A DNA stretch of 62,214 nt, filler included, from Candidatus Woesearchaeota archaeon (GTDB lineage Archaea > Nanobdellota > Nanobdellia > Woesearchaeales > GCA-2687795): assembly GCA_030753365.1 (NCBI GenBank). It is 5 parts of 5 records of this genome, joined end to end, with 100 filler letters (N's around TTAATTAATTAA, not from the genome) between each part and the next. Parts side by side here need not be neighbours in the genome. Positions count along the whole stretch, not along the records: positions 51,079 to 58,930 come from JASMCJ010000013.1; 4 more parts are not named here. One strand, 5' to 3'. The notes under the pieces were generated by a model. The model was not told the DNA's origin. It did no database searches and saw nothing but the letters and a program-made list of their open reading frames with translations. Shown here in pieces: positions 10,322 through 53,477 of the stretch (positions are counted from its first letter, which is position 1; every line of letters starts with the position of its first letter). The translations under genes and the position numbers were made by a program.

Positions 10322-10924
10322 TCAAGGCCTTAACCACCTAATCTCATAATAGGTAACATCCCCTTCATCATCAACAATCCCAATCAACAATCTCTTCTTA
10401 GTAGAATGTGCAACCCTATTCTTAGCGGCAAACTCATACCATGTAATAGTAGAACCTTCATGCACAGGATAAACCACCCATCTTGCATGATCCTCACCAG
10501 GCTTAACTCCTCTGTCATAAATCCTGAAATCTGCTCCAAACTTCAAAGCAGTCTTAATAATATATCCTCTATTCCTAATATCCTTAAACACGCAAAACCT
10601 TACCCATATATTAGGCTCAACCTTCTGCGCTTTCTTTAAGAACTTTTCAAACGTGATTTTATGATTCCTGCCATCTACAACCTTAAGTCTTCCCTTTTCC
10701 ATAAGATACAAAGCCTCAAGCAGTGATAACTGAACCTTACCATCTTCCACTACGCTTCCATACCTGCTTTGATTATAAAGTTCTCTTGCTTCATCAGAAT
10801 TCTCTGTCAAAACCCTCTCTCTTGAGAAAAATGCAGTAATTTCCTTCTTATTATCAGTATCCTCACTACCTTCATCCTTCAAAATACTGGTATCCTTCTT
10901 ACTTTTTGCCTTTTTCTTAGCCAT
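10322..10924 (-). CDS. endA: tRNA-intron (splicing) endonuclease
   Basis: LSLLEALYL, RGYIIKTALKFGADFRIY..H, RVAHSTKK; Tyr/His/Lys triad present. Confidence 0.95.
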   Translation of the reverse strand: MAKKKAKSKKDTSILKDEGSEDTDNKKEITAFFSRERVLTENSDEARELYNQSRYGSVVEDGKVQLSLLEALYLMEKGRLKVVDGRNHKITFEKFLKKAQKVEPNIWVRFCVFKDIRNRGYIIKTALKFGADFRIYDRGVKPGEDHARWVVYPVHEGSTITWYEFAAKNRVAHSTKKRLLIGIVDDEGDVTYYEIRWLRP

Positions 10925-24254: not shown

Positions 24255-24354
24255 NNNNNNNNNNNNNNNNNNNNNNNNNNNNNNNNNNNNNNNNNNNNTT
24301 AATTAATTAANNNNNNNNNNNNNNNNNNNNNNNNNNNNNNNNNNNNNNNNNNNN
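24255..24354. other. Artificial contig linker
   Basis: N-run with central TTAATTAATTAA. Confidence 0.99.
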
Positions 24355-51079: not shown

Positions 51080-51340
51080 ATTTATACCGCGCAAGGGTTT
51101 GAATTTGATTATGTGGGAGTTATTGTTGGTGAAGACATAAAATATGATAAAGAAAAAGATTGTTTGGTTGGAAATCGAGAGGGAACAAAAGATCCAATCT
51201 TGAAAAGAAGTAAAGAAAATTTTGATAATTATGTTAAAAATATATATAGAGTTTTAATGTCACGAGGAATGAAAGGTTGTTATGTTTATTTTGTGGATAA
51301 GGATGTTGAAAAATTCTTTAAATCCAGATTAAAAAAATAA
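51080..51340 (+). CDS. C-terminal fragment of a DUF2075 (Schlafen-like helicase) protein
   Basis: IYTAQGFEFDYVGVI, KNIYRVLMSRGMKGCYVY. Confidence 0.85.
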   Translation: MYTAQGFEFDYVGVIVGEDIKYDKEKDCLVGNREGTKDPILKRSKENFDNYVKNIYRVLMSRGMKGCYVYFVDKDVEKFFKSRLKK

Positions 51341-51342
51341 TT

Positions 51343-51460
51343 AGTAAAAAGACTATCTGTCCGAAGGACAAAAAGCCCCCTCTTATAAATTTCTTTTACG
51401 AAGTAAAAGACTATATGTGCGTAGCACGGACTCTCCCTCTTTTGTTTCTTTTTCTAAAAG
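51343..51460. repeat. Degenerate ~59-bp tandem repeat with GNA-triloop hairpins
   Basis: AGTAAAA(A)GACTAT.TGT twice; TGTCC-GAA-GGACA, TCTTTTAC-GAA-GTAAAAGA, GTGC-GTA-GCAC. Confidence 0.65.
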
Positions 51461-51498
51461 AAAAATGCGATTTAGATTAGTGAAAATTTAATTGCGTA

Positions 51499-51538
51499 TA
51501 ACATCTTTTAAACGTATGATTTTGTTTAAAAGATGTTA
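51499..51538. repeat. Perfect 15-bp inverted repeat upstream of the integrase
   Basis: TAACATCTTTTAAAC-N10-GTTTAAAAGATGTTA. Confidence 0.85.
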
Positions 51539-51669
51539 ATTGACCAGTGGGTCTTGAGGGGAGACTGGCTGTAATACTGAAATTCTTCATAATTTGGTTT
51601 GCACTGGTCACTGGTCAGGTGCGGGTGAGATTTATATACTAGAAGTTCTGGAACTGTTTCTAGAAAGAG

Positions 51670-52554
51670 GTGTTGATAATGTATTTTAGATATTTTAAAC
51701 GAAAGAAAGGGCCAACAATAAAGCAAGTGGCTAGAAAGAGGTTTGAAAACTTTGTTTCAGAGCTGAGATTAAGATGTTTCAGTGAGAAAACTATTGATAC
51801 ATATACATATTATAATAACAAGTTCCTTGATTTCATTAAGAAAGAGCAGAGAAGCATAACGTCTAATGATATTAAGTCTTACCTCAATTCTCTTATTAAT
51901 AAAGACATTCAGCCAAGAACTGTTCGGATGGCATTGAATTCTATAAAAGCTTACTATGAAGGCTATTTAGGAAAGAAATTATTCAAGAATATTAAAAGCC
52001 CAAAAGTTTCAAAAGATTTGCCTCAGGTTCTGTCCAAAAATGAGATTAAAGCAATGATTGATAATACTAATTTTCTTAAGCATAGGTTGTTGATTGAGCT
52101 GCTATATTCCTCAGGAATAAGGGTTGGGGAATGTGTTAAAGTTGAAATTGATAATATCTACTTTGATGATAAAATTGTATTTATTAAAAATGGCAAAGGC
52201 AAGAAGGATAGGTTTACTATAACATCTAAAATATTTATTGGAGACTTGAATACTTATCTCAATCAAAGGAAAGAGCAGAAAAAATATCTTTTCGATGATG
52301 GTTATACTAACCATATATCTGTCAGAACAGCGGAAGAAATAGTTAAACTTGCAGCAAAGAGGGTAGACATCAGAAGAAGAGTTTACCCTCATTTACTAAG
52401 AGCAAGCTTTGCAACACATCTGATAGAGCATGGAACTCCCATTGAAAAAATTCAAAAACTCTTAGGTCATTCAAATATTGATACCACTATGGAATATATA
52501 GGGACAAGAACTGATGACCTTAAGATGATTAAGAGTCCTTTGGATAATTTGTAA
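51670..52554 (+). CDS. Tyrosine recombinase (XerA/integrase-like)
   Basis: YSSGIRVGE, GKGKKDR, HLLRASFATHL, LLGH, TTMEY; start may be the ATG at 51679. Confidence 0.95.
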   Translation: MLIMYFRYFKRKKGPTIKQVARKRFENFVSELRLRCFSEKTIDTYTYYNNKFLDFIKKEQRSITSNDIKSYLNSLINKDIQPRTVRMALNSIKAYYEGYLGKKLFKNIKSPKVSKDLPQVLSKNEIKAMIDNTNFLKHRLLIELLYSSGIRVGECVKVEIDNIYFDDKIVFIKNGKGKKDRFTITSKIFIGDLNTYLNQRKEQKKYLFDDGYTNHISVRTAEEIVKLAAKRVDIRRRVYPHLLRASFATHLIEHGTPIEKIQKLLGHSNIDTTMEYIGTRTDDLKMIKSPLDNL

Positions 52555-52802: not shown

Positions 52803-53014
52803 TTAATTCACCTCAAATGTTTTTCTTTCCCTTTAAGGAGGGTAATCAATGTGATTTTCTATATACAATAGACAAACCAATTAATTCCCTGACTGTTATT
52901 TAGAACATTTGTGGTGTGAATGAAAACAAATCTGAAAGAAAGCTAAATATATTGCAAAACCTCTTCTCTCACGAAACCTTTAAATAGAAACTTATTCTCC
53001 TATAGAATAGTTTT

Positions 53015-53254
53015 GGGTCCGTAGCTCAGTCTGGAATGGGAAGTGATTCACTCGCTAACTCATGGATGATTGGAGCACCGGTCTTATATGGCCACCGTTG
53101 GTACAAACCTAAGAGAGTCGGCGGTCCAGGGTTCAAATACAGCTTTTTTGCTAAAGCAAAAAACTTGGGAAAATGCGGTTTGCTTTCCTTCGGGCGCAAA
53201 CCTTGTTTTTCTTCGGAAAAATCAAGAAAGCTGATGAAAGTCCCTGCGGACCCA
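53015..53254 (+). tRNA. tRNA-Ile(TAT) with three introns (53035-53069, 53089-53115, 53138-53240)
   Basis: Acceptor GGGTCCG/CGGACCC-A; BHB-type junctions at 19/20, 37/38 and 59/60; anticodon at 53085-53087. Confidence 0.9.
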
Positions 53255-53477
53255 TATTATACTCAGATTAGACCTATATTGTGTGATATATAGACCACAT
53301 AATAGGGATTAAGGGCTTTATTTCCGATACTTTTATAAACGGTTTTTAATTCCTTATATTATAAGAATATTACGTATTATCAGCACCTATAGAGGGAATT
53401 CAAATGAAAAACGCTAATAATATTCATACAGTGGCAATCTCTATGGGAATTAAGTTAAGTGAAGAAATCAAGTTAAG

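Follow-up and report, generated by a model that had tools for sequence, protein, structure and literature searches.

Does a stretch of archaeal DNA that escapes standard tRNA scans and is overlapped by an open reading frame encode the tRNA that reads AUA, and if so, from where did its longest intron come? The locus lies in a window of 62,214 nt (the whole stretch of DNA that was analyzed), which joins five contigs of a Candidatus Woesearchaeota archaeon genome (GCA_030753365.1, here G000; 897 kb, 94.5% complete) with N spacers at 24255, 42135, 50979 and 58931. Features on either side of a spacer are thus not genomic neighbours. The gene itself occupies 53015-53254 on the plus strand (G000:C13:1937-2176), and the original prediction had it split by introns of 35, 27 and 103 nt.

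A tRNA-Ile(UAU) gene in four exons

The three introns were found exactly where they had been placed, and they cut the gene into four exons at 19/20, 37/38 and 59/60 (Table 1). When they were removed by script, the product was a cloverleaf of 75 nt, intact in each of its 21 stem pairs, which ARAGORN calls tRNA-Ile(TAT), in agreement with the UAU anticodon that had been predicted. Such a complete cloverleaf, with its invariant bases, after intron removal places the gene among the archaeal tRNA genes with bulge-helix-bulge (BHB) introns. On the unspliced gene, neither ARAGORN nor Rfam made a call, just as had been expected of standard scans; a custom intron-aware parser recovers the gene and, when given 400 dinucleotide-shuffled versions of the region (519 kb), returned no tRNA parse. 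The tRNA-Ile(UAU) stretch should also not be taken for an assembly artefact, as near-identical DNA is present in contigs of three runs from three studies (none marked as a possible source), one of which covers almost the entire stretch unbroken and another the full tRNA gene, with the gene itself unchanged. We regard it as very nearly certain that this is a real tRNA-Ile(UAU) gene.

The open frame of 85 codons that overlaps the tRNA had been described as spurious. That it is instead a real protein gene, and its likeness to a tRNA a product of chance, is a reading to which we give practically no weight, since, although the frame exists, its translation has no Pfam match, the orthologous locus of a congener (G001, 75% complete) has no such ORF of at least 70 aa, chance parses were not obtained and orthologous tRNAs are found order-wide. 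Covariation in the tRNA-Ile(UAU) orthologs refutes the protein reading. Upstream of the tRNA, there is an A/T run which is predicted to be an archaeal TATA-box-like promoter element.

Table 1. Features of the tRNA-Ile(UAU) gene and of the splicing endonuclease gene. Positions are those of the window.
Feature	Position	Strand	Basis
A/T run, TATA-box-like, about 30 nt 5' of the gene (predicted promoter)	52979..52986	+	sequence; similar run before the G001 ortholog
Exon 1: 5' strands of acceptor and D-stem, D-loop through G19	53015..53034	+	splicing script, parser
D-loop intron, 35 nt, 19/20; central helix 53029-32/53064-67	53035..53069	+	splicing script, parser, orthologs
Exon 2: last part of the D arm (G21), 5' strand of the anticodon stem, UAU at 53085-53087, A37	53070..53088	+	
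Intron of the anticodon loop, 27 nt, at the canonical 37/38 site; strict BHB motif	53089..53115	+	
Exon 3: A38, 3' strand of the anticodon stem, variable loop, 5' strand of the T-stem, T-loop through A59	53116..53137	+	
T-loop intron, 103 nt, 59/60, relaxed motif; family common to non-cognate tRNAs	53138..53240	+	
Repeat core in T-loop intron: imperfect T-run/A-run hairpin and purine-rich tail	53140..53173	+	
Exon 4: U60, 3' strands of T-stem and acceptor, A73 as discriminator; no encoded CCA	53241..53254	+	
Spurious 85-aa ORF overlapping the tRNA, not a gene	53036..53293	+	no Pfam match
EndA, tRNA splicing endonuclease, 200 aa, only EndA-like gene found	10322..10924 (on contig C7 of G000)	-	

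Splice motifs and their covariation

Three BHB motifs with 3-nt bulges had been predicted, and all three helices are present. The 37/38 motif is strict, with 3-nt bulges and a 4-bp central helix of Watson-Crick pairs only (53083-86/53110-13), and the 19/20 motif is strict in a form in which two Watson-Crick pairs are joined by two G.U pairs. The central helix of the T-loop intron (53132-35/53235-38) is likewise made of four Watson-Crick pairs, but here the motif is relaxed on its 5' side, where an A53139.A53234 mismatch stands after the 5' bulge and before a CAGC/GCTG stem, so this part of the claim has to be softened. Neither the relaxed T-loop motif nor the membership of the 103-nt intron in a shared, repeat-related sequence family (see below) had been part of the original prediction.

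All three splice helices covary in relatives. Over 54 distinct ortholog introns (two loci were skipped), the central pairs of the 37/38 motif are kept in 54/54, 54/54, 53/54 and 50/54, and the first two pairs of the intron helix in 54/54 and 47/54. For the D-loop intron, a second register of 33 nt (53036-53068) is formally possible, which would leave a 12-nt D-loop and which, as drawn, is 2.2 kcal/mol less stable than the 35-nt register. The latter leaves a D-loop of 10 nt, as in relatives that have no D intron, and is the register of seven of the eight D-intron orthologs (U16-A in three, C16-G in four); the 33-nt register is thus disfavoured.

When the full precursor was folded with ViennaRNA, the D and anticodon splice helices had probabilities of about zero and the T helix of 0.27. 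As the mature D-stem was also missed by the model, these values should be given little weight, and folding was uninformative as to the order of splicing. A 'self-guiding' second pairing of the anticodon intron was considered and rejected, the best helices falling on invariant columns with no two-sided change, in a test that covered ungapped helices of 4-5 bp and the first 14 intron bases. Base 3 of this intron covaries with its partner in the splice motif.

Two wobbles, G30.U40 and U31.G39, are stacked beside the UAU loop (53078-53121), the first being found in 4/49 orthologs and the second in 37/49. These possibly tune the reading of AUA versus AUG.

Decoding of AUA and the orthologous genes

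AUA accounts for 6923 of the 17431 isoleucine codons (40%) in 493 long ORFs of G000. TiaS (PF08489) was not found in this genome, nor in any of 151 genomes of the order (Woesearchaeales), nearly all of them at least 90% complete, while four of 14 controls were positive. As TiaS was found in none of the 151, the tRNA described here is likely the reader of AUA. The 31 tRNA genes found in G000, a list that is incomplete, include two CAU tRNAs, which were read by eye as initiator-type and Met-type. With UAU, A73, no TiaS and no Ile-type CAU tRNA found, the gene fits the tRNA-Ile(UAU) of archaea that lack TiaS. The original prediction thus stands on this point as well: the predicted spliced product is a complete cloverleaf and no other tRNA decoding AUA came to light. 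We consider tRNA-Ile(UAU), going by gene content, to be likely the sole AUA reader of the cell.

Two G.U pairs in the D helix, the two formally possible D registers, the two wobbles in the anticodon stem, and a tRNA list and genome that are both incomplete might suggest a decaying or mis-spliced tRNA copy, with AUA being read by a tRNA missing from the assembly. We find this very improbable, however, as the whole cloverleaf is paired, as the syntenic three-intron ortholog of G001 has a perfect D helix, as U31.G39 (see above) and G21 (26/49) are frequent among orthologs, and as TiaS was found in none of the 151 genomes and one match to the ortholog pattern per genome is usual.

The Ile-UAU pattern with an intron start was found in 186 of 301 genomes (or in 180 of 294 when seven unpublished ones are set aside), a single match per genome being the rule. 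Among 49 parsed orthologs, a sample that is biased toward intron-bearing genes and leaves eight loci unparsed, the 37/38 intron is present without exception, a T-loop intron in 14, a D intron in eight and the full set in five, so that three introns are not rare in this gene. The 37/38 intron is thus stable, while the D and T-loop introns come and go. A pattern for intronless Ile-UAU, which requires A38 and which other variants would escape, matched in 11 of 301 genomes, but ten of these proved to have an intron starting with AG and one match to be no tRNA at all. Present in every ortholog read, the 37/38 intron is likely under selection, perhaps for a step in the modification of U34. In M. mobile, according to the available part of PMC3575796, AUA is read by an unmodified UAU anticodon.

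The family of the 103-nt T-loop intron

On contig C15 of G000, tRNA-Gly(UCC) has at 59/60 a copy of the 103-nt intron that is 86% identical, and four short relatives are found in the Trp, Gly-GCC, Ser and Val tRNAs of the same genome. A covariance model that included the T-arm flanks gave six matches in G000, all of them T-loop introns, with no free copy. Cross-isotype pairs at least 80% identical take in four of the 15 T-loop introns of G000, as opposed to none in 50 shuffles. The pairs, Ile-UAU/Gly-UCC (86%) and Ala-GGC/Ile-GAU (82.5%, over a common 40-nt T-loop intron), are what is expected of a transposed intron family, being non-cognate and of the same genome.

The Ile-UAU gene of G001 has the same three intron sites and the same gene order as that of G000. 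Its T-loop intron, of 31 nt, is unrelated to the one described here, as is another in the Gly-UCC gene of G001, and the 103-nt intron was not found in this 75%-complete genome. Since both sites hold unrelated sequences in the congener, the 103-nt family most likely replaced older introns at Ile-UAU and Gly-UCC after the two species split.

Elsewhere, tRNAs for at least eight amino acids (anticodons read by eye) have members of the family in their T-loops, including Glu-CUC (L079) and Val-UAC (L118). The last helix base of the intron tracks base 57 of the host: in the 20 family introns that were resolved (eight further candidates were not, some not being tRNAs or lying at a contig edge), A57 occurs with TGAA in 12, G57 with CGAA in seven and G57 with TGAA in one, i.e., 19 Watson-Crick pairs, one wobble and no mismatch. 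By DNA search, the family was found in 22 of 401 genomes (21 of 400 without the unpublished G315) and, by model, in 29 of 150, of which G000, G076 and G172 alone scored higher than 90 bits. Metagenome loci with the long-form pattern, 33 in number, are mostly T-loop introns, the others lying at 37/38 of Val-UAC, in the D-loop or just after a tRNA. Copies that are 83-95% identical belong mostly to one clade (G215 and G424-G428), whose ribosomal proteins are 74-82% identical, and intron and host trees are not in conflict. As this is so, and as L2 went unmatched in one further genome, G340, which is possibly mis-binned, we do not claim horizontal transfer of the intron.

In alignment A1 (14 sequences), two-sided changes were seen in 15 of 32 pairs, a number reached in none of 500 shuffles, although this test is inflated by related rows. 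An alternative is that the excised 103-nt RNA has its own function, whether as a circular RNA or as a stable structured one, with the tRNA gene as its expression cassette. A fixed length (exactly 103 nt in 10 of the 20 resolved introns), two-sided changes in six of the seven pairs of internal helix 4, and the 82% identity of the intron between G000 and G076, whose ribosomal proteins are only 55% identical, would all agree with such a role. Nonetheless, we hold it to be unlikely, as the family is patchy in the above searches and was not found in the 75%-complete G001, as the host tRNA varies and short deletion forms exist, as Rfam gave no match to the intron at the gathering score, and as covariation is to be expected also of a DNA element that is read as a hairpin.

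Some members depart from the common form. A 261-nt T-loop intron at L055:1423-1700 (-) (G285) contains two tandem copies of the element. At L063, a family intron lies between 5' and 3' exons that do not pair in the acceptor stem, which reflects either mis-assembly or recombination of two tRNA genes via their shared intron. In several genomes (L073, L095, L158, L161 and L178), it is the 37/38 intron of tRNA-Val(UAC) that is formed by the element, accompanied at L095 by a related T-loop intron.

Free copies of the hairpin outside introns

The repeat core of the intron (Table 1) is also present outside introns in other DPANN genomes. A pattern for the 5' hairpin core matched 81 GTDB loci, mostly in records titled Woese-, Iain-, Micr- or Nanoarchaeota or 'archaeon', and a few in bacterial or other records. 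Such titles are unreliable as taxonomy, as a record titled Methanosarcinales carries the same stretch as a genome of the Woesearchaeales order (L066 and L041). Sixteen loci were flagged as T-loop introns (one of them wrongly) and 65 were not; it should be considered that hairpin loci of one genome are not independent. A direct repeat abuts the hairpin foot at 16 of these 65 loci and is absent at 49, the two controls giving one and zero. Without one row from an unpublished genome, 15 of 64 have the repeat, namely 13 single copies and two arrays. For the single copies, the repeats are 19-44 bp long (one spans an assembly gap) and, by eye, seven duplicate the end of a tRNA and most others the start or end of a protein gene. 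At the T-loop intron copies, a direct repeat scoring at least 12 was found in 0 of 16, which argues that these copies did not arrive by the same simple insertion.

At L045, L088 and L108, in different genomes, the hairpin stands at the 3' end of one and the same protein gene, presumably purH-like, with a 35-44-bp duplication of the gene end.

The relation between introns and free copies could also be read in reverse, the family having begun as tRNA introns and the free copies being excised introns, or pieces of them, that were re-inserted into DNA. What free copies have in common is mainly the 5' ~35 nt, and nearly all full-length members are in tRNA genes; G000 has intron copies only; and the seven single copies at tRNA ends make up more than half of the 13. 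These points fit the reverse direction, which we still find improbable: free copies begin at the hairpin foot and do not have the 3' splice end of the intron, several lie on the strand opposite to the tRNA or at the ends of protein genes, tandem arrays occur in Iainarchaeota-titled records, and no reverse transcriptase (RVT_1) was matched in G000.

Candidates for a mover or carrier were considered as well. Y1 transposases (eight loci in five genomes) are, by eye, not flanked by the repeat in any case, which sets the family apart from REP/RAYT systems; near one of the eight, a tRNA intron contains a related hairpin. The IS200-like Y1 matches of G000 (C47:4431-4811, C31:75-440 and C72:4224-4364) have end hairpins of their own that are unrelated to the repeat. 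With no repeat at Y1 ends in G000 and four repeat-rich genomes and no RVT_1 match in G000, neither Y1 transposases nor reverse transcriptase are supported as movers. Nor is there support for viruses as carriers, the long pattern having no match among them and the short pattern three, which by eye are due to chance. REP/BIME sequences and MITEs are short non-coding hairpin repeats that form mosaic arrays and have no coding capacity. The present family is like them in all of these respects but differs in its direct repeats, which vary in length from 19 to 44 bp, in the terminal inverted repeat that most free copies do not have (a 7-bp terminal stem is found in the intron form only; a MITE would have terminal inverted repeats and a target duplication that is short and fixed), the lack of any linked transposase among the genes found, and its occurrence as a spliceable tRNA intron.

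A proposed origin of the intron

The explanation that we consider probable is that of a tRNA-Ile(UAU) with three BHB introns, spliced by EndA and RtcB and likely the sole reader of AUA, whose T-loop intron would derive from a mobile hairpin and would have been copied between tRNAs. In this scheme, the repeat would insert with a target duplication of 19-44 bp, and an inserted repeat would survive either at gene ends, which the duplication would restore, or in a tRNA, where a splice motif removes the repeat from the RNA. [quoted passage not shown] The wider claim, that a protein-less hairpin of several DPANN phyla is a donor of tRNA introns, making long duplications, hopping between T-loops and being removed by a loop-less EndA, with the present gene as a recent capture, is one on which we are evenly divided.

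The splicing machinery

EndA of G000 is encoded by a single gene (Table 1), no second subunit being found at E values up to 10 (one match only), and RtcB is present. The Tyr-His-Lys residues that we take to be the catalytic triad of EndA correspond to Y136, H146 and K177 by alignment to 1a79. As a single gene combines the two domains with the triad, and no gene for a beta subunit was found, the enzyme is predicted to be of the alpha4 (homotetrameric) type. The protein is close to the EndA of N. equitans by sequence comparison. Its Tyr-to-His spacing is 10, as in M. jannaschii and as opposed to 16 in N. equitans; relative to Sulfolobus 2cv8, it has a 10-residue gap at the presumed CSL site. By alignment, it thus has neither the crenarchaeal-type loop nor the six-residue basic insert of N. 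equitans, and none of the broad-specificity loops (CSL/L1, ASL/L2, L3) was recognized, although the L3 criterion of PMC5829648 may differ. A specificity loop is placed at 90-98 in the available part of PMC3488258. The G000 protein also has a 28-residue N-terminal extension that is basic and acidic.

A single EndA is predicted to cut all three BHB introns and RtcB to seal the exons. In the available text of PMC5829648, only (alpha-beta)2 and epsilon2 types of EndA cut non-canonical introns, and alpha4 enzymes bearing L3 are linked to disrupted tRNAs in DPANN. A single EndA that appears to be loop-less, in a genome in which 15 of 31 tRNA genes have a 59/60 intron, is therefore in testable tension with the published specificity. 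With the tRNA-Ile(UAU) precursor as a natural substrate, it could be asked if relaxed T-loop motifs are cut by a single-subunit EndA that has no known specificity loop, an activity that current papers ascribe to other types.

Comparison with known systems

Multiple-intron tRNA genes and intron transposition are described for Thermoproteales (Sugahara 2008 and Fujishima 2010, as cited in the available part of PMC4033280; PMC8450103, likewise in part). As there, up to three BHB introns are found per gene and similar introns occur in non-cognate tRNAs; the present case differs in its DPANN host, in a single-subunit EndA without the crenarchaeal loop, and in a long, structured 103-nt intron whose core is also found outside tRNA introns. 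In the available part of a preprint on Asgard archaea (bioRxiv 10.64898/2026.10.13.758758), introns in families of at least 80% identity make up 28.3% of all Thermoproteales introns and 1.5% of Asgard introns; our 4/15 should be set beside these values with care, as the method differs and the G000 count considers T-loop introns only. That text leaves the arrival of introns open, finds that neither copying nor mobile elements nor reverse transcription provide a general route, and, as far as it is available, contains no DPANN terms.

TiaS-less archaea with a tRNA-Ile(UAU) include ARMAN-2, -4 and -5 (PMC3239211) and Nanoarchaeum equitans and Korarchaeum (PMC3919564), both sources being available in part. 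G000 resembles them in its UAU anticodon and in the lack of TiaS and of a detected Ile-type CAU tRNA, and it resembles ARMAN-2 in 59/60 introns with relaxed motifs (PMC3239211, in the part available). It differs in that the condition is order-wide here, and in that the EndA of ARMAN-2 is of the three-unit epsilon2 type, as opposed to one 200-aa unit. The pre-tRNA-Ile(UAU) of Cyanidioschyzon merolae also has three introns, of which the anticodon intron is removed last, and has pseudouridine at 34 and 36 (available part of PMC9602550). This is a eukaryote, its introns are at 12/13, 37/38 and 53/54, unlike those of G000, and the likeness is convergent.

Three-intron tRNAs and UAU decoding are thus already known from Thermoproteales, ARMAN and Cyanidioschyzon. 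What is new is the link that the T-loop intron makes, by sequence similarity, between tRNA introns and a free, seemingly mobile hairpin family; a literature search, outside whose coverage most subscription papers fall, returned no description of the hairpin repeat or of the T-loop intron family. The hairpin family is a likely source of new tRNA introns and so bears on how archaeal tRNA introns arrive. The donor route can be tested, as a single family includes introns as well as free insertions with duplications, and differs between congeners at two loci. Moreover, as standard scans miss the tRNA for AUA, annotations of such genomes lack an essential gene.

Neighbourhood and other tRNAs of G000

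Just upstream of the tRNA, 51113-52554 holds the end of a Schlafen-group helicase gene and a XerA-like tyrosine recombinase; the latter is directly upstream, on the same strand as the tRNA, scores as an archaeal XerA and is syntenic in G001. Integrase-driven disruption of tRNAs is described for Caldiarchaeum subterraneum (PMC3293823, in the part available), and a tyrosine recombinase beside a tRNA, as well as tRNA-end duplications flanking some free copies in other genomes, resemble that case. The recombinase was nonetheless rejected as the cause of the T-loop intron, unlike in Caldiarchaeum, because it is syntenic in G001, where the T-loop intron is unrelated.

Downstream of tRNA-Ile(UAU) lies an L3-L4-L23-L2 ribosomal operon. 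Other multi-intron tRNA genes of G000 are found at C28:21201-21033 (-), C47:817-671 (-), C3:1314-1462 (+) and C67:831-985 (+), and Ile-GAU and Lys-UUU have at least three introns each. Ala-GGC, which is intronless in G001, has a D-loop intron similar to that of one Ser tRNA. At G000:C61:1176-1472, a tRNA-His has its 5' and 3' ends duplicated on either side.
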